From an uncultured Desulfobacterales bacterium (GTDB taxonomy: Bacteria; Desulfobacterota; Desulfobacteria; Desulfobacterales; B30-G6): DNA of 64,000 nucleotides. A model generated the notes under the pieces. The model worked only from the letters and a program-made list of their open reading frames with translations, did not search any database and was not told the DNA's origin. Location of the stretch: positions 9,880-73,879 of the forward strand of contig CAYVMI010000006.1 in NCBI GenBank assembly GCA_964452555.1. Direction: 5' to 3'. Below, piece by piece: positions 8,430 to 64,000 of this stretch (position 1 is its first letter; each line of letters opens with the position of its first letter). The position numbers and the translations under genes were made by a program.

Positions 8430-8875
8430 AGATATCTCCTTTTAGCGGTGCTGTGTGACGCATTATTAAAGACGGCCTTATGTGCAATGTCCGGACGCCG
8501 ATTGGGGTGAACAAATCATTCCATTAGAAATATTTGACACCGGAATAATACTGATTACTAATTACCTCAGTTGAATGTAACCAATACTGAGATATTGAAA
8601 TGGTTGTTAAAAAACTATGTAATTTAGTTCATCCTGGTAAATAATTACACATTTCGATGGTACTCAATTACATAGGCTCAGAACCATCAAGTTACAACCG
8701 GCATAGAGTATTAGAAGCCATCTCAAAATACGTTAACTTATTAGGGCTGCCAAATTAAGCGGCTCAAAATGCTTATATATTAAATGGATGCTCCGGTTTT
8801 TATATGTCCTGCCCCTTGCCAGAGGACCAATTCGTTATTTTGAGATAGGTTGTAGAAAATATTTGTTGGCTAAAA

Positions 8876-8891
8876 TGGCATCATATTTGCT
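8876..8891 (+). promoter_or_regulatory. candidate sigma-54 (-24/-12) promoter
   Basis: TGGCATCATATTTGCT fits TGGCAC-N5-TTGCW with correct GG/GC spacing, 45 nt upstream of the ATG at 8936. A single-site match could be chance. Confidence 0.35.
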
Positions 8892-8935
8892 GATTCATAT
8901 AGGGTGTTACTAAATTTCAGCTAATGGTGTGATTT

Positions 8936-9568
8936 ATGGAAAGCATAAAAAATATACTGGTTACCTTGCTTATTTTCAGCCTGCTTTCGGTTCCCGAAGC
9001 CATCAGCAGCCAGCAAAGTGGCCGTTTAAATCTTGGGGATCGATTCGTACACCAGGTCATGATGCCGATGCCGTCCCAAGTTGCCGGGTCAACCGCCCAG
9101 CAGATCGGACTGTCTCAAATTGGCTCAGGTGTCTCGCTTTACCTGGGCATGCCGGACCGACTTTTTACTGATATTATTGAAAAAGCAGCTGAACGGCACC
9201 AGGTTGATTCGGCGCTGGTCAAAGCCATTATCATGGCCGAATCCCGCTATAACCACCGGGCGGTTTCCAAAAAAGGTGCTCGCGGTTTGATGCAGCTAAT
9301 GCCCCGCACGGCAAGATCTTTGGGTGTTCGCGATCTGTTCGATCCCGAAGATAATATCAACGGCGGCGTCCTCTATATGAAGAAGCTGCTCAAACGATTT
9401 AAAGGCGACACCAAGCTTGCTTTGGCCGCCTATAATGCCGGAAGCCGCTATGTTCGCCATTACAAGGGTGTTCCGCCCTTTCTTCAAACTCGTACATTCA
9501 TTAAAAAAGTCCTGAAATATCATCGCCTTTATAAAACGGATCAGATGACTTTAGCTGACATCGTCTAG
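8936..9568 (+). CDS. lytic transglycosylase (SLT domain), secreted
   Basis: Signal-like N-terminus, then AIIMAESRYNHRAVSKKGARGLMQLMPRTA and AYNAG motifs of SLT family 1. Confidence 0.85.
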   Translation: MESIKNILVTLLIFSLLSVPEAISSQQSGRLNLGDRFVHQVMMPMPSQVAGSTAQQIGLSQIGSGVSLYLGMPDRLFTDIIEKAAERHQVDSALVKAIIMAESRYNHRAVSKKGARGLMQLMPRTARSLGVRDLFDPEDNINGGVLYMKKLLKRFKGDTKLALAAYNAGSRYVRHYKGVPPFLQTRTFIKKVLKYHRLYKTDQMTLADIV

Positions 9569-9721
9569 CAGTGGTTTAAAAACCTTTCCTCTGGCCCAAT
9601 CTCGGCGTTGGGGCAGAACATTTAATGCTCAAAAAACTCAATGTTTTCCTGCGCGTAAATAACCCGCCCCACCTTGACCTTGAACCCGATTAAAGATTTT
9701 TAAAACAACTGCGTACAACAT

Positions 9722-10054
9722 TCAAACGAGATCTGTGGCTGGGAATTGCCATTGATTGGCAGCCATATCAATGCGGCCGTTTTCGTCAAAGCGAACCCCC
9801 TCTGCTTCCAGCAAAGCGCGTTGAAATTGAACTGCGTCTCCATCACCCCGGGGACTGATATACCCCTGGTGATTGACCACTCTATGCCAGGGCACATCGC
9901 TGTCAAAGGGCAGCGCCGCCATGGCGTACCCTACCATTAAGGGCGAGCAACGTCCCACAAATGCCGAAATCTGGCCATAACTCGCCACCATGCCATCCGG
10001 GATGCTGCGAACAGCATCATTTATCAATTCAAAAAGCGACTTTGGTTTGTCCAT
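9722..10054 (-). CDS. alkyltransferase-like (ATL) / MGMT DNA-binding-domain protein
   Basis: SYGQISAFVG...VPWHRVVNHQGYIS. The PCHRV active-site Cys is replaced by Trp (TGG codon), as in ATL proteins. Confidence 0.75.
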   Translation of the reverse strand: MDKPKSLFELINDAVRSIPDGMVASYGQISAFVGRCSPLMVGYAMAALPFDSDVPWHRVVNHQGYISPRGDGDAVQFQRALLEAEGVRFDENGRIDMAANQWQFPATDLV

Positions 10055-52667: not shown

Positions 52668-52710
52668 GGGAGTCATTTACTCCACTTGAATCAGATGGTT
52701 GGGGGTCGTG

Positions 52711-54195
52711 ATGCGTACAGACAAAGAAACTGAATACCTCATAAAGGCCATCAATGCCTTCCAGAATCGACTTATTGTTGTCACGCCGGATTTCAAGCTG
52801 CTCGCGGCAAATGTCCCTCTGGACGAGATATCAAATCAAGATATTGCTGGGAAATACTGTTATAATCTTTTTCATGATCGATCTTCACCTTGCGAAAACT
52901 GTGCCGTGGCCGCGGTTAAAGAAACCCTTTCACCCTCGTTATGCCCGAAACCGGGACGTTTTGTTATGAACGGCGGATTGGCCTGCTTCTACGCCTACCC
53001 CATCATGAATGGCGATCAGGCTGAAGCATTTGTCAGTATGGATTTTGAAATTCCCAGCGTGGGGCTGCTTGAGGATGAACTTCGCCGATCCAATGCGCTC
53101 CTTGAAAATTTGTTGCTTAGCGCTGTTGACTGTGTGATCGCTTCCGACATGAGAGGTAATATCTTTCTGTTTAACGCTTCCGCTGAAGAGGTGTTTGGAT
53201 ATACCAAAAAAGAGGCTAAGAACGACATTACGGTTCGAGACATCTATCCAGGAGATGGCGCCCGCCAGGTGATGAAGCTGCTTCGGGGTGACGAATATGG
53301 CGGTGCGGGTCGGCTCCAAACATATCATACCAACGCTCTGGCCAAATCAGGCGAAGAGATACCCATCAGCCTGTATGCTTCCATTATTTATGAAGAAGGA
53401 CGGGAAGTCGCCACCATCGGTTTTTTCCACGATTTGCGGGAGCGAATCCGGATTCAGAACGAGTTGGAAGAGACCCAGGTACAGTTGTTGCAGGCCGAAA
53501 AAATGTCATCCCTGGGAAAACTGGCCGCCGGTGTGGCCCATCAGATCAACAACCCCCTGGGCGGTATCACCTTGTTTGCCAAACTGATGCTGGAAGAATA
53601 CGAATTGGAAGACGCGGCCGAAGATGACCTGCACCGCATCTTGCGTGATGCGGAGCGTGCCCGCAACACCGTCAAAGAGTTGTTGGAGTTTACCCGCCAA
53701 ACGCGTCATCTCATGCGGCCCAATAATATAAATGAAGCTTTGAACCGGACACTGTTCCTGCTGGAAAACCAAACCATCTTTCAAAACATCGAACTTACAA
53801 AAGATTTTCAGGAAGACCTTCCGCTGGTGACGTCGGATGCCCAGCAGATGTACCATTTGATGATGAATCTCATATTGAATGCGGCTCAAGCCATGGAAGG
53901 CAATGGTATATTGACACTTAAAACCTGGTATCGGAAAGATAAGGATCGTGTTTGCTTTGAAATCTCGGACACCGGTCCGGGCATCCCTGAAGAAGCCTTG
54001 GCGCATATTTTTGAACCGTTTTACACCACTAAAGAGGAAGGTAAGGGGACTGGTTTGGGACTCAGTTTAGCCTATAACATCGTCGAAAGCCACGGAGGTA
54101 GAATGTCTGCCAAAAACAACCCCGAAAAAGGCGCCTCTTTCATTATTGAATTGCCCTCTGCTTCAAAAGATCAGAAAGGAGATGAGTGTGACTGA
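52711..54195 (+). CDS. sensor histidine kinase (Cys-rich N-terminal sensor + PAS + HisKA + HATPase)
   Basis: CYNLFHDRSSPCENCAV, a PAS-like middle, the H-box AAGVAHQINNPL, and N/G boxes LNAAQAM and GTGLGLSL. The ATG at 52711 is preferred over the TTG at 52699. Confidence 0.85.
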   Translation: MRTDKETEYLIKAINAFQNRLIVVTPDFKLLAANVPLDEISNQDIAGKYCYNLFHDRSSPCENCAVAAVKETLSPSLCPKPGRFVMNGGLACFYAYPIMNGDQAEAFVSMDFEIPSVGLLEDELRRSNALLENLLLSAVDCVIASDMRGNIFLFNASAEEVFGYTKKEAKNDITVRDIYPGDGARQVMKLLRGDEYGGAGRLQTYHTNALAKSGEEIPISLYASIIYEEGREVATIGFFHDLRERIRIQNELEETQVQLLQAEKMSSLGKLAAGVAHQINNPLGGITLFAKLMLEEYELEDAAEDDLHRILRDAERARNTVKELLEFTRQTRHLMRPNNINEALNRTLFLLENQTIFQNIELTKDFQEDLPLVTSDAQQMYHLMMNLILNAAQAMEGNGILTLKTWYRKDKDRVCFEISDTGPGIPEEALAHIFEPFYTTKEEGKGTGLGLSLAYNIVESHGGRMSAKNNPEKGASFIIELPSASKDQKGDECD

Positions 54196-55687
54196 CAACG
54201 CGGAGACATTGCCCGTTCTCATTGTAGATGACGAACTGGATATTCGAGAAGGATCGGAACGGATCCTCAAGCGAATGGGATTTGAAGTAAGCACGGCGGC
54301 CAATGGTGAGGAAGGCTTGGATAAATTTTCAACCATTAAACCGGCGATTATACTCCTGGATCTTAAGATGCCGGGTATTGACGGCTTAGAGGTTTTAAAA
54401 CGAATCCGCGAAATCGATGAAAATGTGATCGTCATCGTTATAACGGGTTATGCCACCGTTGAGACAGCCATTCAGGCCATGAAGCAAGGTGCCTATGATT
54501 TTATCCCCAAGCCTTTTGAACCGGATCAGCTTCGCATCATTGTCAATCGAGCGGCGGAAAAAATTCGACTGAAGTTGGCAGCCGCAGAAATGGACCGCGA
54601 ACGCCAGCGAACACTGCTGGATCTGGGAACCGAGAAAAGCCGTATTCGCACCATCATCGAGTCATTGCCCAATGGCGTACTGGTCACCAATACATCCGGG
54701 CAAGTTGTCTTAATGAATCCAGCCTTGACGCAATTGCTAGGGTTTGGCTCTGATCTGTCTCTGGGCGAAAGCATTGAGCGCTACCTGCCGGATGAAGGTC
54801 TTTGCCAGCTCATTTTGGAAATATCACAAGGCCGGCATATCGATTTTGAAGATATTCCCGAATACGAATTCTCCTTGTCCAAAGATCAGTTTTTCATGGC
54901 CAAAGGACGACCGGTGTTGGGTCAAAGAAATGAATGCCTGGGTTCCGTGGTAACCGTGGTCGATATATCGGCCCTGCGCATGATCGATCAACTAAAATCA
55001 GAGTTTGTGGCCAAGGTATCGCATGAGCTGCGATCACCTCTTTCCACCATTCATGAGCAACTGGCGGTTGTTCTTAGCGATATGATGGAAATTGCGCCGG
55101 AAACCGATCAGAAAATCCTGGGTCGTGCCAAAGAGAAAACACACAGTCTGATATCTTTGATAGGGGATTTACTGGACCTTTCCAGAATAGAAGAAGGCGC
55201 CATCTGCAAAGAACCGGTGCCGGTCCAGATCGATACCCTGTTAAAAGGCATTGTGGATTTTCTGAAAGACAAAGCCGCCGCAAAGCGGCAATCCTTGTCC
55301 CTTGAAATCAATGCGGATTCACTCCCGGAAATGCAGGCAGATCCTTTGGCTCTGGAAAGTATTTTCGGAAATCTGATTGCCAACGCTATAAATTACACAC
55401 CCGAAAACGGGCATATCCAGGTAACAGTCGAAATGGCCGGCATTAATGTCAAAGTCAACGTTATTGACAATGGCTTTGGCATCGAAGCCAAGTACATGGA
55501 TCAGATCTTTGATCGTTTTTATCGGGTAAAAAACGATCAAACCCGCTACATCACCGGAACCGGCTTGGGCCTGCCCATTGTAAAGGAATTGGTCCAATCT
55601 TTGGGTGGATTTGTGGAAGTGGATAGTACCCTTGGGAAGGGGTCGACCTTCACGGTTCTACTCCCCGTCAACATGGCGGCTTCGTAG
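54182..55687 (+). CDS. hybrid response-regulator/histidine kinase (REC + PAS + HisKA + HATPase)
   Basis: The ATG at 54182 overlaps the upstream stop. REC VLIVDDE...ILLDLKMPGIDG...KPF, H-box VSHELRSPL, and GTGLGLPIV. Confidence 0.85.
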   Translation: MSVTDNAETLPVLIVDDELDIREGSERILKRMGFEVSTAANGEEGLDKFSTIKPAIILLDLKMPGIDGLEVLKRIREIDENVIVIVITGYATVETAIQAMKQGAYDFIPKPFEPDQLRIIVNRAAEKIRLKLAAAEMDRERQRTLLDLGTEKSRIRTIIESLPNGVLVTNTSGQVVLMNPALTQLLGFGSDLSLGESIERYLPDEGLCQLILEISQGRHIDFEDIPEYEFSLSKDQFFMAKGRPVLGQRNECLGSVVTVVDISALRMIDQLKSEFVAKVSHELRSPLSTIHEQLAVVLSDMMEIAPETDQKILGRAKEKTHSLISLIGDLLDLSRIEEGAICKEPVPVQIDTLLKGIVDFLKDKAAAKRQSLSLEINADSLPEMQADPLALESIFGNLIANAINYTPENGHIQVTVEMAGINVKVNVIDNGFGIEAKYMDQIFDRFYRVKNDQTRYITGTGLGLPIVKELVQSLGGFVEVDSTLGKGSTFTVLLPVNMAAS

Positions 55688-55830
55688 AAAGCTCAACTTC
55701 TGCGTTGTACTTCATACCTTAATCTTGAATTCAGTCTCTTTCAAGATTAAGGCCGCAATACATTCACATATTACAAGTACGCCTCATTGTTACGAAATTC
55801 GTACACCTTTATTTTGAACTGTTTACGAAA
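55681..55830. repeat. family C element, long variant
   Basis: The ends TTCGTAGAAAGCTCAA and TTGAACTGTTTACGAAA are inverted. It carries an extra internal hairpin ACCTTAATCTTGAA...TTCAAGATTAAGG. Its left end supplies the kinase stop codon. Confidence 0.65.
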
Positions 55831-55867
55831 CCGTGATCTCATCTTATTGTTGGTTTGAAAGTTTCTT

Positions 55868-56011
55868 AAAAACGCATCCCAAAATAGGATTTTAGTCCAA
55901 GGTCAAGGCGGCTGATCTTTTCAATCCGCAGGAATGCTATAGTATTTTGAGGTGTTGAAAAGTGAGGCCAACGCCGAGATTGGGCTAAAAGGCATTTTCG
56001 GATGTGTTTTT
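55868..56011. repeat. long imperfect palindrome, family B copy
   Basis: The core 55885-55981 is about 85% identical to 26077-26173. Copy-specific outer arms AAAAACGCATCCCAAAAT / ATTTTCGGATGTGTTTTT pair with each other. The right arm overlaps the aroE stop. Confidence 0.7.
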
Positions 56012-56825
56012 ATGTGCTTTCGATGGCGGCGACAAACTCCTCCGGCGGCACCTGCAGACCGGTCCAGAGCTGAAAGGTCCGGCGGGCCTGATATGCCAAT
56101 GGCATCAAACCGTCCATGAATTGAATGTCCTTATCCGCGGCTAGTTTTTCCCAGAAATTATTGGGGCGGTCATAGTTAAGATCCACCAGCATTTTGCATT
56201 CAGGCAGTTCCAAAGACCCCACCAATTCCGCCATTTCCTGAGACTCATCTTTGCTTGAAACCGAGGTGGCGTTAATAACGATGTCCACGGGCAGGGCCTG
56301 CCCTTCCAACGATGCAAAGTTCCTGACCTCACCCCCGAACTGCTTGACCATCTGTTGGGTTTTTTGCTCATCACGCCCGGCCAGATAAATGGTCTTGGTT
56401 CGTTGCCAATTTAATATGAAGGCAACCGCCCGGGCCGCCCCACCGGTACCAAAGATTAGGGCCGATTTATCTTCGGCCTCAAATTCAGCCTTCGACAAAG
56501 CGTCCATGAATCCAATGGCATTGGTATTATATCCTTTTAACTTACCTTCAGTAACAACAATGGTGTTGATGGCCCCAATTATATTGGCGCCCTCGGATAG
56601 AATATCTAGAAATGGCAGGACGGCCTCTTTGTAGGGAACAGTTACATTGGCACCGGCAATATTTAAAATCTGCAGGCTTTGGAGTGCCTGTCCTACTTGA
56701 TCCGGAGCGACCTTGAAAGGTACATAGGCACCTTTGATCCCCATACGATTTAATACAGTTGAAAAAATAGCGGTTGATCTGGCGCGATATGCCCGTTCAT
56801 CGGAAATGATGCCGTAGACTTGCAT
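56010..56825 (-). CDS. aroE: shikimate dehydrogenase
   Basis: GANVTVPYKE, NTIV and GTGGAARAV motifs, at 271 aa. Confidence 0.85.
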   Translation of the reverse strand: MQVYGIISDERAYRARSTAIFSTVLNRMGIKGAYVPFKVAPDQVGQALQSLQILNIAGANVTVPYKEAVLPFLDILSEGANIIGAINTIVVTEGKLKGYNTNAIGFMDALSKAEFEAEDKSALIFGTGGAARAVAFILNWQRTKTIYLAGRDEQKTQQMVKQFGGEVRNFASLEGQALPVDIVINATSVSSKDESQEMAELVGSLELPECKMLVDLNYDRPNNFWEKLAADKDIQFMDGLMPLAYQARRTFQLWTGLQVPPEEFVAAIEST

Positions 56826-56859
56826 GATTTATTTATCCGGTTTGTAGAACGGTTAACCA

Positions 56860-58167
56860 CTACGGTTTAGGATATGGATTCACATCAGCCAAATCTGGCC
56901 CTAGATAGGCGCGCTCATTCTCACCCAGAATACCCATGGCCAGGCACATGAGGGTCCAAATATGTACGGAATGGTACTTGCCTTCGAAATGTTCACCTAA
57001 ATCGTGAATTTGCGAATGACAGTTGTGACACGGGGTAATACAGTAATCTGCATTGGTTTCTACAATCTGTTCGAACTTTCTTTTCCCGTAATAACGACGC
57101 GCCTCCGGATACCCGGATTGCAGAAAGCCGCCGCCCCCGCCGCAGCAATAATTATTGGATCGGTTGGGGGCCATATCGACGAAGTTCTCTTCTCCTACAA
57201 TGGTTTTTACCACCATGCGAAGATCCTCGGCCACTGGATCGCCAAGCGACTTTCGAACCAACTGGCAGGGATCTTGAACCGTGAATGTTACCCCCAGGTC
57301 ATCATTCCAGCTGGAGTCAATGTTCAGTTTTCCCTCGCGTATCCACTGGGCATAATATTCGATGATCGATCTAACCTCGAAATTGTGTTCGATATTGAAT
57401 TTGTTCAGTCCGACCCGGACTGAGAAAAACTCATGACCTCACTCGGTGTTGAGCCAGACCTTGCACCCCAGGGCATCCACCGCCTCGGCTTTGATACGCA
57501 CGTTCTTTTCCCACTTCTCGTTATCGGCCAGAAACAAGCAATAATTTTCGGCGGCCCACCCCTTGGAGCCATAAGTCCAGTCAGCGCCAACCGTGTGCAA
57601 AATTTTCCATAACGGCACCATTTCATCCGGTTCCGTAACCGGTTCACGGGAGTTCTGGTTCAAGAAAAATTCAGCCCCGTGCTTGTCAATCGGCGCCTGC
57701 ATCTCCTTGAACTCAGGCTGTTCTTCCTGATACTCCTCCAACACGTCCTCAACGACGAATTGAAAATCCTCTACTGTCGCTCCCATGGCACTGCAGGTAT
57801 CATTTTTAAAGGCCATCTCACACGAGCCATGGATTCCCTTGGGTCGATCTTCCACGGGCCAGCGATTACGAACGTTGAAAACCAGGGCCGGGATATCGAT
57901 CTTCATGGGACAGGCAATGATACATCGCTGGCACATGGTACACATCCAGGCCCACTTCGAACTCAGCACCTCTTCATCCAGTCCCAGGGAGGCCATTCTT
58001 AAAAATTTACGCGGATCCATTTCCTCCAGCCCGGTTGCCGGGCACCCTGAGGAACACAACCCACAGGTCAAACAAAGATTTAAATTGCCCCCCTCGGGCA
58101 GGATTTTCATGACCTCTTCTTTGAATACGCTTTTCTTCTTATCTAACTTTAGAACCGGCAATGACAT
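56860..58167 (-). CDS. HdrD-like Fe-S oxidoreductase selenoprotein (2x4Fe-4S + Cys-rich CCG-type domains, UGA=Sec)
   Basis: ORFs 57439..58167 and 56860..57261 are in one frame. Read-through of the TGA at 57439-57441 plus 59 open codons gives 435 aa: CLTCGLCSSGCP, CTMCQRCIIACP, ...LNTE-U-GHEFF...DPCQL...NNYCCGGGGG...TPCHNCH. Confidence 0.8.
57406..57422 (-). promoter_or_regulatory. candidate SECIS stem-loop
   Basis: Perfect CAGUCCG-GGU-CGGACUG hairpin, or a 6-bp stem with a GGGUC loop, starting 17 nt after the UGA. Confidence 0.6.
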
Positions 58168-58243
58168 GTTTAACTCCTATCAATTTCAGCCAAATTTGAA
58201 CGGCTGTTACAGATCGACCTGGCATGCATCAAATCTGATTGGA

Positions 58244-58633
58244 TTACATGCCCAGCATCGAGCGAATGCTTTGGGAAATTTCCTCCGCCGAAGCAGGCTT
58301 GGCAATATAATCATCGGCCTCGGTGCTCATGCCGTCGGCGTGAGAATAACGGGTCGACGTGACATGCGATGCCACAGCAGTCAATAAAAGTACCGGGATT
58401 TCGCACAAATCGCCATCCGCTTTAAGTTCCTTGCACATTTCATATCCATCTTTTTCAGGCATCATAACATCAAGCACGATGGCATCGGGCGGATTGGCCT
58501 GGACTTTTTCCATGCCTTCCACCCCGTTATATGCCAGTTCAACTTCAAAGCCTTCCTTTTCCAGCTGCCCCTGAACGATGGAGCAGAAGTCAGGCTCATC
58601 ATCTACTACCAGAATTCTTTTTTTATCCGTCAT
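58244..58633 (-). CDS. receiver-only response regulator (CheY-like)
   Basis: ILVVDDEPD, IVLDVMMPEKDG and ADDYIAKP motifs. 129 aa with no output domain. Confidence 0.85.
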   Translation of the reverse strand: MTDKKRILVVDDEPDFCSIVQGQLEKEGFEVELAYNGVEGMEKVQANPPDAIVLDVMMPEKDGYEMCKELKADGDLCEIPVLLLTAVASHVTSTRYSHADGMSTEADDYIAKPASAEEISQSIRSMLGM

Positions 58634-58684
58634 GGTAAACCTCCTGTCTGTTCCAATACGACAATTATTACTCGGTTAAATGCT

Positions 58685-59614
58685 TCACACACTGGGCCGT
58701 GGATATAAGCCCGCTGCTTCCACGATTTCAGGGACCATTTCCTCCCACTCGATGGCCATGACGTGAAAGCCACTGACGCCTTCCACTTCTTTCAACCGCT
58801 GAATATCCTCAATACAGATCTTGACACCCTCCTCGGCCTGTTTTTCCTTGGGCGTATCCGCTAAACGTTTAACCAGCTCATCGGGTACATCCATGCCGGG
58901 GACGCGGTTCTTCATATACTTGGCCATGCCGGCCGATTTCATGGGTGTCATGCCAGCCAGGATATAGACCTGCTCATGCAAACCACGGTCCCGGGCCAGT
59001 TTCATCCATTCCTCAAATTTATCCAGGTTGTAGATACACTGGGTCTGAATAAATTCGGCCCCGGCCTTAATCTTCTTAGCCAATCTGGGCACCCGTATTT
59101 CAAATGGGTCGGCAAAGGGATTGGCTGCGGCTCCCACAAACATCTGCGGCGGTCGTTTGATCTCATCGCCACCCAAGAATTTGCCTTCATCCCGCATATG
59201 GCGAACGGTCTGAACCAGCTGCATGGAGTCTAGATCGTGCACATTCTGGCCCTGGGCGCAGTCACCAAAACTTTGATGATCGCCGGAGAGACACAGAATA
59301 TTGGCAATATCATAGGATGCCGCCCCTAAAATATCACTCTGCAAGGCAATCCGGTTACGATCGCGTGTCACCATTTGCAATACCGGCTCCAAGCCCATCA
59401 GCTTGATACGAATACAGGCCGCCAGGCTACACAGACGCGTAACAGATGTCTGGTTATCGGTGATATTGATGGCATCAACATGGTCTTTTATCAGCTCTGC
59501 TTTTTTAGTAATCGCATCCGGATCACTGCCACGCGGCGGACCACATTCCGATGTAACGGCCATTTGACCGGAAGCTAATACTTTTTCCAAGCGACTCGGC
59601 GTTTTTGTTTTCAT
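58685..59614 (-). CDS. metF: methylenetetrahydrofolate reductase
   Basis: INITDNQTS, QMVTRDRN and LCLSGDH motifs of the MTHFR TIM barrel. Its start overlaps the metV stop. Confidence 0.9.
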   Translation of the reverse strand: MKTKTPSRLEKVLASGQMAVTSECGPPRGSDPDAITKKAELIKDHVDAINITDNQTSVTRLCSLAACIRIKLMGLEPVLQMVTRDRNRIALQSDILGAASYDIANILCLSGDHQSFGDCAQGQNVHDLDSMQLVQTVRHMRDEGKFLGGDEIKRPPQMFVGAAANPFADPFEIRVPRLAKKIKAGAEFIQTQCIYNLDKFEEWMKLARDRGLHEQVYILAGMTPMKSAGMAKYMKNRVPGMDVPDELVKRLADTPKEKQAEEGVKICIEDIQRLKEVEGVSGFHVMAIEWEEMVPEIVEAAGLYPRPSV

Positions 59615-60279
59615 GACTGCACATCCTCCCTCACAACTTTTCGCGGTCCTCCCGCCCGGTCGGTGGACCAGTCTTTAATCGGACTCAGCTCTTCATATTC
59701 ATCGAATCTTTCCAGGGCTTTGAGACGCTCAACAATCAGTTGCCAAGCACACACAAGCTCTTTGCTGATTTCGCACATGCCGTTGGTGGACCCACCACAG
59801 GGTCCATTCATCACACGCTTGGCACAGCGTGAAACCGGACAGATACCACCCGTGCGGGATAAAATGCATTGCCCGCAACCCTGGCATCGTTCGGTCCAGA
59901 GTCCGCGTTCCTCGGTTGCGCCCATAAAACAGGTGTTGACACCCGGATAAACAGGCATGGCCAAATACTTTTCGGCTGTGAACTGAACGCCGACGCCACA
60001 GGCTATCGATACAATGGCATCGTACTGGTCAATATCATTGCGGATCTCCTCCAGGTACTCATGGTCGCATTGGCGTTCGAGCGTTCGCTCATCGACCTTC
60101 TTTTCTGTGCCCTTGTTCAGAAAATACATGCGCAATGCCGATGCCAGGATGCCAACCTCCTTTTTTCCGCCGGCCTCACATACTGTTACACACTCATTGC
60201 ATCCTAGTATCAGTATCTTTTGGTGATCCTTTATGTCCTCAATAATCTCTTCAATCGGCTTCTTGTCGGCGACAATCAT
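59611..60279 (-). CDS. metV: MetV-like protein (MTHFR C-terminal Cys-rich domain)
   Basis: Cys-rich LGCNECVTVCEAGG and CQGCGQCILSRTGGICPVSRCAKRVMNGPCGG, as in acetogen-type MetV. Confidence 0.8.
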   Translation of the reverse strand: MIVADKKPIEEIIEDIKDHQKILILGCNECVTVCEAGGKKEVGILASALRMYFLNKGTEKKVDERTLERQCDHEYLEEIRNDIDQYDAIVSIACGVGVQFTAEKYLAMPVYPGVNTCFMGATEERGLWTERCQGCGQCILSRTGGICPVSRCAKRVMNGPCGGSTNGMCEISKELVCAWQLIVERLKALERFDEYEELSPIKDWSTDRAGGPRKVVREDVQS

Positions 60280-60418
60280 AATTTTATCCTCTTAGCTTGG
60301 GTCTTTCCAAATTCGGTTTATGGTTTACATCGTAGCCTTTTTTTATTCTTTAAATCGCGGTCGCAAGCCAAGCGCCTTGCGGTTATCAGCCATGCCGGCC
60401 TATAATGGCGCTAGACCG

Positions 60419-60850
60419 TCAGGCCGCGTCCTTTTTGGGCAGTTTGATGGGATTGGGACCGAGTTCCTTGATTTTTTTGACCATGTCCACAGCCACTTCC
60501 GCAAACATGGGGCCTTCGCTGGACGCCATATTGAACATTTCCACCCGCTCGCCGCCCACACCCACTGTATCCAGTATCTGCTTGGCCTGTTCGATCCGTT
60601 TGCGGGCTCTAAAATTGCCACCGGTATAATGACAATCACCTTCCATACATCCCACGGCATAAACACCGTCGGCCCCCTTTTCAAAAGATTTGAGGATATG
60701 CAGTATATCCACCTTTCCGGTGCAGGGTACCCGGATAATCTTGATGTTCGTCGGATACGTCAGTCGCATGGAACCTGCCAGGTCCGCGGCCGTATACCCT
60801 CAGAAATTACAACAAAAGGCGATGATTATAGGCTCAAATGTTTGGCTCAT
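60419..60850 (-). CDS. mvhD: MvhD/FlpD-like selenoprotein (UGA=Sec in CNxC motif)
   Basis: The ATG at 60850 forms an ATGA overlap with the upstream stop. Read-through of the TGA at 60800-60802 gives MSQTFEPIIIAFCCNF-U-GYTAADLAGSMRLTYPTNIKIIRVPCTGKVD...GADGVYAVGCMEGDCHY. Confidence 0.8.
60770..60785 (-). promoter_or_regulatory. candidate SECIS stem-loop
   Basis: GGACC-UGGCA-GGU(U)CC: a 5-bp stem with one bulged U, starting 15 nt after the UGA. Hand-folded. Confidence 0.5.
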
Positions 60851-63800
60851 AGGACTCCCTCCAGCAAGGATTCTATCTTGCAAATCAATTGATCGTCTTC
60901 ATACCAGTTTAGCTCAATGGCCTTTGCCGGACATTCCGCTGCACACACTCCACACCCGTGGCACAAGGCCACATCAATCTCACTAACCCCATCGGCATTG
61001 ATCACGGGAACTTCATAGGGACAGGAGCGTACACAAATCAGGCAGGAAGCGCACATGTCCTGTTTGACCTCGGCCGTTATGGCGGACAAGGTCAGCTCCG
61101 ATTGGGACAGGAAGGTAATAGCCCGCGAAGCGGCTGCATTGGCTTGGGATATGGTTTCAGAAATCAGCTTGGGACTGTGAGCGGTGCCACATACAAAAAT
61201 GCCCTCCGTGGCCATATCGACAGGCCGTAGTTTCACATGGGCTTCCATGAAAAAGCCCTCCGGTCCCCGGGCCAGCTTTACAATCGAAGCAAGCTCGGCC
61301 GTGTCCTCCGGCACCATCCCCGCACTCAAGGCCAGCACATCGGCCGTAACCTGCAAAGGCCGATTCAGTACATGATCATGAAAGGTAACATTCACCCCAT
61401 TTTCTGAAGATTCCACCTGGGGTGGATTGTCGGGTGTATAGCGGAAGAACAAAATGCCCGCTTTGCGGGCTTCTTTATAATACTCCTCCAACAAGCCATA
61501 GGTCCGGATATCCCGATACAACACATAGATATTGGCATCCGGATGCTCTTCACGAATATGAAGGGCATTTTTGATGGCATTCTGACAGCAGATCCGTGAA
61601 CAATTGGGATTGTCATCATTGCGCGAACCCACGCACTGGATCATGACGACGGAGTTTAAAGAACCCGGTTCCAGTGTTTCCATATGGTGGGTCAGTTCCA
61701 CCTGGGTCATCACGCGATTATCTTCGCCATATAGGTATTCTTTAGGCTCATATTCCTTGGCGCCGGTGGCCAGGATTACGACCCCGTGTTCAATCTTGCG
61801 TTCGTACATACCGGGCCCCACCAAAACTTCGGTCGTGAAATTTCCCTTGAAACCGGAAAAGCCCACGATGAGGGATTGGGTCAGCACCTGGATGTTATCA
61901 TGTGCGCCAACCCGTTCACCGAGTTCTGTCAGGTAGGGTTGGATTTGGGCTCCTTCAATAGTGGCCTTCAGATTGTTGGCCATACCGCCCAGTTGATTCT
62001 CCTTTTCCACCAGAAACACTTCGTATCCCTGATCCGCTAAACCCAGGGCGGAATTCATGCCGGCAATACCACCGCCCACCACCAATGCCTTTTGGTTGAC
62101 CGGTATGGTTTTTTCACCCAAGGGATTGAGAGTGGCTGCCCGGGCCACGGCCATGCGGACCAGATCTTTTGATTTCTCCGTCGCCTCTGCAGCCTCTTTC
62201 GCATGCACCCAGGAACCTTGATTGCGGATATTGGCCATTTCAAAAAGATACTTATTAAGCCCGCATTCGCGCAGGGTGTCCATGAAAATGGCCTCATGGG
62301 TCTTGGGAGTACAGGCCGCCACCACAATCCGATTGAGATTCTGCTCCTTGATAATCTCTTTCATCTGGTCTTGTGAATCCTGGGAGCAGGTAAACAGGTT
62401 CTGGGTCACATAGGTGACAAAGGGCAGGGTCTGGGCATATTCCTCCACAGCGGCCACATCCACAACTCCGGATATGTTAATGCCGCAATTGCAAACGAAT
62501 ACACCGATACGGGGTTCTTCCTGACTGACGTCGATCTCTGCGGGTAGCTCTACTGTTCGGGTCAAAGTATTGCGGGCTGCAGCCAGGCGTGTTCCGGCGG
62601 CACATGCAGCTGCCGAAGCCTCCGAAACCGAGCTGGGTATGTCTTTGGCTTCCTGAAATGATCCGCTGACATAAATCCCCGGACGCGAGGTTTCCACCGG
62701 GGAAAACGGCTCAGTCACCGCGAAATTATATTGATCCATCTCGACTTCGAGACGTTTGGCCAGATCGATGGTCTGTTCCGACACTTGCAAGCCCACCGAG
62801 AGGACCACCATATCGAAAATTTCTTCTTGGAGTTCGCCGGCCTCATCGGCATAGCGGATGCGTAGATCCTTATTCTCACCGATCTCGTCAATGGTGTGGA
62901 CTCGCGCCTTGACGAATTTCACTCCTTCCTGGTCTTTGGCGCGGACATAGTACTTTTCAAAATCCTTTCCAAAGGTGCGGATATCCATATTAAAGATGGT
63001 GCAGTCCAGATCTTCTTTGGAATGTTCCTTGGCCACCATGGCATCCTTGATGGCGTACATGCAGCAGACCGATGAGCAGTAACCATTGCCGCATTGATTG
63101 CTGTCGCGGGAACCGATGCACTGCAACCAGGCGATCTTTTTGGGTTCGGTTTCGTCCGACGGCTTGATCAGGTGCCCCATGGTGGGACCCGATGCACTCA
63201 GCATGCGCTCGAATTCCAGACTCGTCATCACATTCGGATTGGTCCCGTAGTGATAATGCCTTTCTAAATGACCGGGATCATAAGGCCGGGCGCCCGTGGA
63301 CAGCACCACGGACCCCACGGGAATCTGTCTTTCTTCAAGCACCTGTTCATGTTCCACGGCACCCGCCAGACAAGCCTCAACACACTGATAACATTCCGAG
63401 CAAATACCGCAGGAAAGACAACGATCAGATTCCTTTTTTGAGATGGCCTCGTCAAACCCCAGCTGGACTTCGTTAAAATTTGAAATCCGATCCTCGACTG
63501 CCAGGGTCGGCATCTTTTCCTTGGGTTGAATAACAGCATTATCCAATGGTATGTCATCCACCGTTGCCCAATGTTTTTCGCGTCCGGCATCCAGTTCCTG
63601 TCCCTGTACAAAACGGTCGATGGATATGGCTGCCTGCTTCCCGGCTTCCACCGCTTCCACCACCGTGGCCGGGCCGGTCACGGCGTCACCGCCTGAAAAA
63701 ATGTCCGGATCGTTTGATTGGAGCGTTACCGGATCCACTTGCATGGTGCCCCAGTCACTTAAAGTACAGGCACACTCATCGGTCAGACAGGCCCAGTCGG

Positions 63801-64000
63801 TTTCCTGGCCGATGGCGGGAATGACCGTATCCACCTCCATGGTAAATTCAGAGCCCTCGATGGGGACCGGCCTGCGTCTGCCGCTGGCATCCGGCTTTCC
63901 CAGCTCCATCTTGATGCATTCAATCGCCTTGACCTTGCCGTTCTCACCGATCACACGAATCGGGGTGGTTAAGGTCATGATATCGATGCCTTCTTCAGCG
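60847..64000 (-). CDS. hdrA: GltD-like / HdrA-like fusion flavo-Fe-S oxidoreductase, 5' end beyond window
   Basis: The frame is open to the window edge. N-terminal visible part is MELGKPDASGRRRPVPIEGSEF...VIPAIGQ...GGDAVTG (GltD/NfnB-like). Then come CLSCGICSECYQCVEAC, two HdrA-type segments (LQCIGSRD...CSSVCCMYA and IQCVGSRN...CSRICCQNA), VVGGGIAGMNSA and C-terminal CASCLICVRSCP/CHGCGVCAAECP. Confidence 0.85.
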   Translation of the reverse strand, partial: AEEGIDIMTLTTPIRVIGENGKVKAIECIKMELGKPDASGRRRPVPIEGSEFTMEVDTVIPAIGQETDWACLTDECACTLSDWGTMQVDPVTLQSNDPDIFSGGDAVTGPATVVEAVEAGKQAAISIDRFVQGQELDAGREKHWATVDDIPLDNAVIQPKEKMPTLAVEDRISNFNEVQLGFDEAISKKESDRCLSCGICSECYQCVEACLAGAVEHEQVLEERQIPVGSVVLSTGARPYDPGHLERHYHYGTNPNVMTSLEFERMLSASGPTMGHLIKPSDETEPKKIAWLQCIGSRDSNQCGNGYCSSVCCMYAIKDAMVAKEHSKEDLDCTIFNMDIRTFGKDFEKYYVRAKDQEGVKFVKARVHTIDEIGENKDLRIRYADEAGELQEEIFDMVVLSVGLQVSEQTIDLAKRLEVEMDQYNFAVTEPFSPVETSRPGIYVSGSFQEAKDIPSSVSEASAAACAAGTRLAAARNTLTRTVELPAEIDVSQEEPRIGVFVCNCGINISGVVDVAAVEEYAQTLPFVTYVTQNLFTCSQDSQDQMKEIIKEQNLNRIVVAACTPKTHEAIFMDTLRECGLNKYLFEMANIRNQGSWVHAKEAAEATEKSKDLVRMAVARAATLNPLGEKTIPVNQKALVVGGGIAGMNSALGLADQGYEVFLVEKENQLGGMANNLKATIEGAQIQPYLTELGERVGAHDNIQVLTQSLIVGFSGFKGNFTTEVLVGPGMYERKIEHGVVILATGAKEYEPKEYLYGEDNRVMTQVELTHHMETLEPGSLNSVVMIQCVGSRNDDNPNCSRICCQNAIKNALHIREEHPDANIYVLYRDIRTYGLLEEYYKEARKAGILFFRYTPDNPPQVESSENGVNVTFHDHVLNRPLQVTADVLALSAGMVPEDTAELASIVKLARGPEGFFMEAHVKLRPVDMATEGIFVCGTAHSPKLISETISQANAAASRAITFLSQSELTLSAITAEVKQDMCASCLICVRSCPYEVPVINADGVSEIDVALCHGCGVCAAECPAKAIELNWYEDDQLICKIESLLEGVL

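Follow-up and report, generated by a model that had tools for sequence, protein, structure and literature searches.

A selenocysteine-bearing HdrL-MvhD-MetVF operon without HdrBC in Desulfobacterales: a variant of the Hdr-type methylene-tetrahydrofolate reductases

The window analysed here is a stretch of 64,000 nucleotides from an uncultured Desulfobacterales bacterium (GTDB lineage B30-G6; contig CAYVMI010000006.1 of assembly GCA_964452555.1, positions 9,880 to 73,879 of the forward strand). It ends, at 56010-64000, in a cluster of seven co-oriented minus-strand genes that includes hdrL, the gene of a giant flavoprotein of the HdrA kind, mvhD, and the metV and metF genes of a methylene-tetrahydrofolate (methylene-THF) reductase. 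This operon is a variant of the known Hdr-type methylene-THF reductases, bearing selenocysteine (Sec) and lacking HdrBC, and not a new kind of system. Judging from its gene content and from its relatives, it probably encodes a soluble multi-subunit enzyme, a methylene-THF reductase or methyl-THF dehydrogenase, in which MetF and MetV would be wired via MvhD to HdrL, with a link to NAD(P)H and a third partner at the FAD of the first half of HdrL.

Gene content and organisation of the cluster

The seven genes, in the order in which they are transcribed, are the following.

60847 to beyond 64000, minus strand: 3' part of the hdrA-like gene hdrL, 1050 codons without a stop (3.15 kb)
60419-60850, minus strand: mvhD, 143 codons, Pfam FlpD (E=6e-48), in-frame TGA at 60800-60802
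59611-60279, minus strand: metV, 222 aa, Pfam PF12225 (DUF5981/MetV; E=4e-36), NGPCGG motif
58685-59614, minus strand: metF, 309 aa, Pfam MTHFR (PF02219; E=3e-36), with matches to methylene-THF reductases in PDB
58244-58633, minus strand: receiver gene, a single-domain response regulator of 129 aa, Pfam Response_reg (E=4e-25)
56860-58167, minus strand: hdrD-like gene, 435 codons, Pfam Fer4_8 and CCG, in-frame TGA at 57439-57441
56010-56825, minus strand: aroE-like gene (shikimate dehydrogenase family), Pfam Shikimate_dh_N and Shikimate_DH

By domain identity, MetV is the small Fe-S/zinc-ribbon subunit of the MetFV-type methylene-THF reductases and MetF is their flavin- and folate-binding catalytic subunit. 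A sequence-only reading of the window had described seven co-oriented genes and their junctions, and all of these proved exact: the hdrL stop and the mvhD start share an ATGA at 60847-60850, metV and metF overlap by the 4 nt of an ATGA at 59611-59614, and the remaining gaps measure 139 (mvhD-metV), 51, 76 and 34 nt (hdrD-like/aroE-like). The seventh gene, aroE-like, lies outside the start that this reading had set for the cluster, at 56860. The two ATGA overlaps amount to translational coupling and count in favour of a joint enzyme. The mvhD-metV spacer (60280-60418), which ranges among relatives from about 40 to more than 300 nt, has no terminator-like hairpin, and its sole promoter-like match overlaps the ribosome-binding site of metV; no terminator was found in a scan of the intergenic gaps, and the promoter and terminator scans stayed at chance level.

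Conservation of the cluster in Desulfobacterales

Scanning genome contigs with MetV as the query brought up 32 loci. Without exception they belong to Desulfobacterales, Desulfobacteraceae or Desulfococcaceae, and nearly all come from metagenome-assembled genomes (MAGs); Desulfatirhabdium butyrativorans and Desulfococcaceae HSG8 are among the carriers. The synteny map was made with tblastn over these related loci, of which 27 have enough upstream DNA to be assessed. The order HdrL-MvhD-MetV-MetF is found in all 27 species-level loci, with MetV identities that run from 95%, in the nearest GTDB species, down to 57%; metV is always directly upstream of metF, and a receiver gene follows metF in 19 related loci. 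Independent metagenome contigs, in which HdrL is 71-93% identical, have the same gene order: two of them (L005 and L008) reach 93% identity in the HdrL part and 95-97% in the remaining proteins, and a third (L007), on a contig of 4.2 Mb, reaches 71% in the HdrL part. More than 100 clusters (at 90% identity) of full-length HdrL are 68-94% identical to the window protein, and a protein search with MetV returned only homologues that are at least 86% identical, from uncultured sources. The window cluster has neither hdrB nor hdrC, and the same is true of all 27 related clusters.

This recurrence means that the gene arrangement is not due to chance. The link between MetVF and an HdrA/MvhD module of the Moorella kind, which the sequence-only reading had proposed, is borne out by the domain identities and by the conserved synteny. 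Since HdrL-MvhD-MetVF is invariant while the HdrD-like gene varies, the core unit is HdrL-MvhD-MetVF.

Two more distant arrangements of metVF were seen in related genomes. In a Desulfobacterales MAG in which MetV is 47% identical (L037, 3185-9175; also L038), AcsB (ACS/CODH beta) is followed by a 744-aa fusion of GltD/NfnB, a 2x[4Fe-4S] domain and an MvhD-like part, and the MetV-MetF pair downstream of the fusion is separated from a second such pair by two receivers and a kinase; this HdrA-free GltD-MvhD-MetVF arrangement is not among the classifications of methylene-THF reductases in the accessible literature. In another genome, which also has an HdrL-type cluster, a second metVF pair (L034, 13269-20554, minus strand) is preceded by the gene of a 1087-aa fusion of NuoE, NuoF and GltD and by one of the molybdopterin (formate-dehydrogenase-like) kind, and resembles the 'X type' of Yi et al. 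2021. The arrangement in L037 supports a putative electron path from GltD through MvhD to MetVF, as well as a link to the Wood-Ljungdahl pathway.

Architecture of HdrL

The window covers only residues 435-1484 of HdrL; for the N-terminal part, the description relies on orthologues with 93-94% identity to the portion in the window. Residues are numbered after the 1484-aa orthologue at L005 9734-14188, which is collinear with the window protein. The 5' remainder of the gene, beyond base 64000, adds 434 residues and a third Sec in these orthologues. HdrL matches HdrA in PDB with E=2e-147 and NfnB/GltD with E of about 1e-35 to 1e-41, and has Pfam and NCBIfam matches as well. Its domains are arranged as follows.

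Residues 1-110 (orthologue only): half 1 of HdrA, start of the FAD-binding part and Sec67, without an N-terminal cluster domain
Residues 116-126 (orthologue only): inserted ferredoxin domain, first half
Residues ~165-575 (end of the module in the window, ~63577-63999, minus strand): GltD/NfnB module with Fer4_20, GAGPAG, GGGNVAMD and YRR
Residues 628-644 (window ~63370-63420, minus strand): inserted ferredoxin domain, second half, CLSCGICSECYQCVEAC
Residues 650-920 (window ~62542-63354, minus strand): TrxR-like C-part of half 1, with CIGSRD...CSSVCC and the E356/K409 equivalents
Residues 925-1060 (window ~62122-62529, minus strand): N-terminal [4Fe-4S] cluster domain of half 2
Residues 1076-~1400 (window ~61105-62094, minus strand): TrxR-like part of half 2, with CVGSRN...CSRICC
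Residues 1417-1457 (window 60850-61077, minus strand): C-terminal 2x[4Fe-4S] domain

The window thus covers only the C-terminal ~140 residues of the GltD/NfnB module (residues 2-141 of the fragment against ~330-470 of NfnB/GltD). The FAD and NAD(P)H motifs of the module are visible only in the orthologues; full-length relatives carry PF14691 and PF07992, and the NAD(P)H motifs GGGNVAMD and YRR are invariant among them. There is no NfnA-like gene (PyrK-like, [2Fe-2S], FAD) in the window or in the related loci, and HdrL itself contains the NfnB-like part as an internal domain. The two CxGSR(D/N)...CxxxCC segments that had been reported in the HdrA-like protein are both present (CIGSRDSNQCGNGYCSSVCC and CVGSRNDDNPNCSRICC). 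Half 2 has no Cys between GGGIAG and CVGSRN, and lacks both the Cys197 motif and the inserted ferredoxin domain. To judge from this order of domains, HdrL is a single-chain 'asymmetric HdrA dimer' of 1484 aa, with two HdrA-like halves that appear to complement each other.

The residues E356 and K409, in the numbering of M. thermolithotrophicus HdrA, are the literature marker of a bifurcating HdrA flavin site (PMC9430772). Their equivalents in half 1, E698/K752 (E264/K318 of the window fragment), are invariant in 106/106 relatives. The second marker lysine is also invariant in half 2 (K1244, 106 relatives), and only one of the two flavin sites of HdrL keeps the complete E356/K409 signature.

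Selenocysteine codons

The sequence-only reading had counted two Sec residues in the module. Both in-frame TGAs of the window behave as Sec codons, and the count has to be raised to three for the complete cluster because the third was found in hdrL beyond base 64000. The mvhD codon, in the context CCNF-U-GY (U17), is kept in 29/29 sequences, and that of hdrD-like, in the context LNTE-U-GH (U243), in 15/15; the hdrL codon is conserved in 20 sequences. Protein conservation runs on both sides of each TGA. The residue that aligns with U17 of MvhD is the Sec ('X') in VhuD (PDB 9sfi_K) and a Cys in other MvhD structures, and the position of U243 is an invariant Cys in 19 full-length Cys-type homologues of the HdrD-like protein. 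In relatives, the N-terminus of HdrL reads GGGITG...DKTFPTNDCAM-U-IISPK, in which U67 falls, in the alignment, on Cys197 of M. thermolithotrophicus HdrA (5odc_A) and on the Sec of 9sfi_A.

Each TGA is followed by a hairpin that resembles a selenocysteine insertion sequence (SECIS).

60771-60785, minus strand: GGACCU-GGC-AGGUUC, begins 17 nt past the mvhD UGA, 100% invariant (n=29)
57406-57422, minus strand: CAGUCCG-GGU-CGGACUG, begins 19 nt past the hdrD-like UGA
L005 9950-9967, orthologue: hairpin of hdrL, third positions frozen at codons +6 to +11

The hairpins sit +17 to +20 nt after the TGA and have a G-rich apical loop, GG(U/C). Third codon positions are frozen precisely over them (codons +5 to +9 in mvhD, +7 to +11 in hdrD-like), and the flanking synonymous sites vary freely. 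In two relatives (L029 and L030), the hdrD-like hairpin has a compensatory change from G-C to U-A that also alters two amino acids. Their folding energies are no better than those of dinucleotide shuffles (z = +1.1, -1.3 and -1.5 for the three hairpins), so thermodynamics alone gives no support to the SECIS call and it is sequence conservation that reveals the hairpins.

The in-frame TGAs could instead be true stops, which would leave mvhD and hdrD-like as split or decaying, non-functional fragments. Automatic gene callers do split both genes at the TGA, a scan of 55000-64000 with Rfam gave no SECIS or other RNA family, the window has no tRNA gene, hence no tRNA-Sec, and no sel gene, and the folding energies count on the same side. 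Yet the TGA stands at exactly the same codon in all the aligned sequences of the three genes, with protein conserved on both sides; Cys is found at the position in homologues, and Sec in the solved structures of VhuD and HdrA; and synonymous sites are frozen over the downstream hairpins only, with one compensatory pair change. We regard true stops as extremely improbable, and both in-window TGAs are, on these alignments, very probably selenocysteine codons. Gene callers also split hdrL in relatives, where they report an open reading frame of 66 aa and another of 1395 aa (in L005, in the region 9734-10001, the split falls at a TGA) instead of the 1484 aa obtained by read-through. With three cluster genes split at their Sec codons, automated annotations under-report the operon.

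The HdrD-like selenoprotein

The N-terminal half of the HdrD-like protein aligns to HdrC (2x[4Fe-4S] domain), and its C-terminal CCG domain aligns to residues 132-270 of HdrB. The latter holds the sole complete CCG motif of the protein, CX40CCX37CXXC (C301, CC341/342, C380xxC383). The N-terminal CCG-like region is degenerate and reads C...E-U-G, with Sec in place of the second Cys; HMMER gave no alignment of this region to HdrB. From the motif spacing, C210...E242-U243 would correspond to the first C...CC of HdrB, with the CXXC lost. The nearest NCBIfam families are HmcF, TmcB and DsrK, and the protein falls far short of all their cut-offs: it scores 170 bits where HmcF requires 750, 164 where TmcB requires 735 and 124 where DsrK requires 400. 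In the AlphaFold model of a 67%-identical Cys homologue (predicted local distance difference test, pLDDT, 77; predicted template modelling score, pTM, 0.82), the best match is M. smegmatis EtfD, followed by HdrB, LutA and HdrC.

Cys-type homologues, 64-67% identical, occur in two other gene contexts. The closest one belongs to a cluster of HdrA (1109 aa), MvhD, HdrD, an FrhB-like protein and a [NiFe] hydrogenase (L042, 3931-12495), and another adjoins etfAB in Desulfonema magnum (L040, 3989-11308). These contexts fit a modular HdrBC-like subunit for HdrA/MvhD systems, one that seems to pair with several electron-input modules and may serve as a thiol:disulfide site or as an electron exit; the first of them supports the HdrD-like protein as a putative HdrBC-equivalent partner of HdrA/MvhD.

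Another possibility is that the operon encodes two independent enzymes: HdrL, MvhD and the HdrD-like protein would form an NAD(P)H:disulfide (DsrC-type) oxidoreductase of sulfate respiration, and MetVF would be a separate, ferredoxin-dependent methylene-THF reductase of the 2S type. HdrL paralogues adjoin dsrABC, hdrABC, POR or fdh in other organisms, and other HdrL loci have been proposed to act on disulfides. The nearest relatives of the HdrD-like family are HmcF, TmcB and DsrK, and MetFV of the 2S type is self-sufficient with ferredoxin. However, the adjacency of mvhD, metV and metF is invariant (27/27) and it is the HdrD-like gene that varies. Moreover, the homologous proteins of Moorella co-purify as one complex, and in L037 a GltD and MvhD fusion stands directly upstream of MetVF. 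In view of this, we consider two separate enzymes quite unlikely, and the joint Hdr-type enzyme is retained in what follows.

Upstream region and regulatory genes

In relatives, the DNA beyond the equivalent of base 64000 encodes, in addition to the 5' part of hdrL, a second methylene-THF reductase paralogue and a divergent sigma-54 response regulator. The paralogue, of 289 aa and 31% identical to MetF, is found in about 18 of 22 loci; in L005 it lies at 8854-9720, 13 nt upstream of hdrL. A box of the -24/-12 sigma-54 type, TGGCACACTCATTGCG, stands upstream of it at L005 8725-8740, and similar boxes occur in six other loci. The regulatory genes around the cluster are these.

L005 7029-8399, minus strand: divergent sigma-54 response regulator
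52699-54195 and 54146-55687 of the window, plus strand: two overlapping PAS histidine-kinase genes, convergent on the cluster, the second with an N-terminal receiver

L005 has the same two kinase genes in the corresponding position, with the Pfam domains PAS, HisKA and HATPase_c, and the pair is a probable regulatory context of the cluster. Together with the receiver embedded in the operon and the sigma-54 regulator, it suggests that a dedicated phosphorelay controls the operon. At the other end, many relatives keep the aroE-like gene as the last one of the cluster. Its product scores below the NCBIfam aroE cut-offs, and the gene may be either a passenger or a member of the functional unit with an NAD(P)-linked role.

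A proposed electron path and its alternatives

We infer that the proteins of the cluster form a physical complex and propose the following path. Electrons would run between MetF (flavin and folate site), MetV (Fe-S), the [2Fe-2S] cluster of MvhD and HdrL. Half 1 of HdrL would provide the Sec at the Cys197 equivalent and the split inserted ferredoxin domain with its GltD/NfnB-type FAD and NAD(P)H module, and half 2 the cluster domain at its N-terminus and the ferredoxin domain at its C-terminus. If the Mvh-Hdr structures are taken as a model, MvhD would dock at the cluster formed by the N-terminal domain of half 2 and Sec67 of half 1; the GltD module, at the usual docking place of ferredoxin, would provide the link to NAD(P)(H), and the C-terminal ferredoxin domain may lead to the HdrD-like subunit or to free ferredoxin. 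Electrons would pass between NAD(P)H (-320 mV) and the methylene-/methyl-THF pair (-200 mV), and the half-1 FAD, which alone has E356/K409, would be the likely coupling site for a third partner of low or high potential. The HdrD/DsrK-like selenoprotein, here and in about half of the relatives, may offer a thiol:disulfide site and thereby a possible third partner (DsrC-type or another disulfide); in clusters that lack it, ferredoxin would be the likely third partner. In a sulfate reducer of the Desulfobacterales, the direction would probably be that of methyl-THF oxidation, and the uphill transfer to NAD(P)+ would be driven by confurcation or bifurcation. The reduction of NAD(P)+ by methyl-THF is endergonic by ~23 kJ/mol, which is the thermodynamic rationale for coupling. 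The most likely activity, on this analysis, would be a reversible NAD(P)H:methylene-THF oxidoreduction coupled to a third partner.

A number of observations weigh against this proposal. First, the hdrD-like gene on which the thiol:disulfide branch depends is present in 13 of 24 assessable clusters and absent from the other 11, which have at least 2 kb of downstream DNA. Second, the position of E356 in half 2 (residue 1204) is T in the window and T, S, A or G in relatives, with E in only 2/106. Third, the other 56 kb of the window contain unrelated housekeeping genes and no Wood-Ljungdahl genes (no acs, fhs or folD). Fourth, MetFV alone works with ferredoxin in clostridia, bifurcation to a second acceptor is still a proposal even for the Moorella complex, and the homologue of Sporomusa appears to feed a membrane chain. 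The first of these points modifies the sequence-only reading, in which a single HdrD-like selenoprotein replaced HdrB and HdrC: it is right that hdrB and hdrC are missing and that one protein with fused HdrC and HdrB parts is encoded, but a gene found in only about 13 of 24 species is accessory and cannot be an obligatory replacement of HdrBC, so the thiol:disulfide branch is not essential to the core enzyme. As to the suggestion of possible bifurcation, it gains from the one HdrA flavin site that keeps E356/K409 and stays at the level of a suggestion.

According to a simpler explanation, the operon encodes a non-bifurcating NAD(P)H-dependent methylene-THF reductase, with HdrL as an NAD(P)H site and Fe-S/flavin wire like RnfC2 in Acetobacterium woodii, no third substrate, and the HdrD-like protein as an unrelated or loosely associated neighbour. 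Related Desulfobacterales do join MetVF to HdrA-free NAD(P)H modules (the GltD and MvhD fusion of L037 and the NuoE/F and GltD fusion of L034), and a NuoEFG 'X type' has been described (Yi et al. 2021); about half of the clusters do without the hdrD-like gene, the second flavin site of HdrL is without E356, and non-bifurcating HdrA homologues are known (PMC9430772). Such an enzyme would nevertheless face the ~23 kJ/mol in the oxidative direction, from methyl-THF to NAD(P)+, and two complete HdrA-like flavin/cluster modules, one of them with E356/K409 invariant in 106/106 relatives, would be costly for a mere wire. We hold this explanation to be unlikely and prefer the coupled Hdr-type enzyme.

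A bolder form of the coupled enzyme includes the HdrD-like subunit. In HdrL-MvhD-MetVF-HdrD(Sec), methyl-THF would drive bifurcation at the half-1 flavin, where the -200 mV electron pair would be split, one branch going uphill via GltD to NAD(P)+ and the other downhill via the Sec-containing DsrK-like subunit to a DsrC-type (tri/di)sulfide. We regard this as speculative and distinctly improbable; if true, it would connect the Wood-Ljungdahl pathway, in its oxidative direction, to dissimilatory sulfite reduction by a direct route with no membrane step. Complete-oxidising marine Desulfobacterales mineralise a large share of sediment carbon via the reverse Wood-Ljungdahl pathway. Their outlet for the 'awkward' -200 mV electrons of methyl-THF is a puzzle akin to that of the second acceptor in Moorella. 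The operon is a concrete candidate for such an outlet: its subunits are defined, an NAD(P)H site is predicted, one flavin alone bears the bifurcation signature, and a thiol:disulfide module is optional. It is spread over at least 27 species-level genomes and more than 100 protein clusters at 90% identity.

Comparison with known systems

The closest known system is the MetFV-HdrABC-MvhD methylene-THF reductase of Moorella thermoacetica, which has been purified and whose proteins co-purify as one complex (Mock et al. 2014, as summarised in PMC5861303, PMC8515935 and PMC9430772). Its HdrA, of 1487 aa, has an N-terminal TrxR-like domain interrupted by ferredoxin and GltD (FAD, NAD(P)H), followed by an HdrA without inserted ferredoxin, and the E/K bifurcation markers are at 696/750 and 1204/1246 (Kremp et al. 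2022, PMC9430772). It has been described as a tandem HdrA with complementary loss of Cys197 and of the N-terminal domain (Chadwick et al. 2022, PMC9012536). The likeness is close: both systems have overlapping metV and metF frames, mvhD, and an HdrA of about 1485 aa with an insertion of ferredoxin and GltD, the two HdrA proteins are collinear (1487 aa against 1484 aa), and the half-1 markers are at 696/750 in one and 698/752 in the other. The GltD/NAD(P)H insertion therefore cannot count among the differences from Moorella, contrary to what the sequence-only reading implied: the Moorella HdrA has the same layout.

The differences lie elsewhere. The present cluster lacks hdrB and hdrC, with an HdrD/DsrK-like selenoprotein instead in about half of the relatives; three of the proteins (HdrL, MvhD and the HdrD-like one) contain Sec; E356 is gone from the second flavin site, whereas Moorella keeps it there as E1204; there are an additional upstream methylene-THF reductase paralogue, an embedded receiver, and a flanking sigma-54 regulator and histidine kinases; and the cluster is not part of a Wood-Ljungdahl gene cluster and belongs to a Desulfobacterales host, not an acetogen. 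Among the MetFV types, namely 2S, 3S (RnfC2), 6S (HdrABC-MvhD) and X (NuoEFG) (Yi et al. 2021), the enzyme very probably works like the 6S enzyme of Moorella, if the comparison of their proteins is a guide, but it should not be called a 6S enzyme because it fails the hdrB/hdrC feature. HdrA or HdrABC adjoining metF has also been reported in Seep-SRB1g (Murali et al. 2023). The literature accessible to us, a scope that leaves Pereira 2011 and Mock 2014 outside, holds no description of an HdrBC-less, Sec-bearing HdrL-MvhD-MetVF(-HdrD) operon.

The resemblance to the HdrL type of Desulfobacterium autotrophicum that had been suggested was upheld. HdrL was defined in strain HRM2 (Strittmatter et al. 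2009, PMC2702500), and, in the accessible part of that source, it is likewise a large fusion of HdrA with a glutamate-synthase-type part, with an NAD(P)H site and Sec, followed by mvhD. The present protein has these features, of which Sec and most of the GltD module are seen in its orthologues; the two are likened by described features. In the same accessible text, HdrL1 is tied to dsrABC and sulfite reduction is discussed, and no linkage to metVF is mentioned.

The methanogen complexes MvhADG-HdrABC and VhuD-HdrA(Sec) (PDB 5odc, 9sfi) have the same HdrA and MvhD folds and the same cluster ligands, and the Sec positions of HdrL (Cys197 equivalent) and MvhD coincide with those of Methanococcales HdrA and VhuD. 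In contrast to them, the present system has no hydrogenase, its HdrA dimer is fused in one asymmetric chain, HdrBC is absent, and the GltD module is inserted at the usual docking place of ferredoxin. A similar NfnB/GltD-like module of ~450-500 aa within the inserted-ferredoxin domain is known in HdrA-NfnB of ANME-1, whose genes are not clustered with metFV and which is not described as a tandem HdrA (PMC9012536). Finally, the HdrD-like protein is built like the members of the DsrK/TmcB/HmcF/HdrD/EtfD family: a di-cluster domain of the HdrC kind is joined to a CCG domain of the HdrB kind, in which a single CX(n)CCGX(m)CXXC motif is complete, and the fold matches EtfD and HdrB. It differs from them in being soluble, with no gene for a membrane partner in the vicinity.

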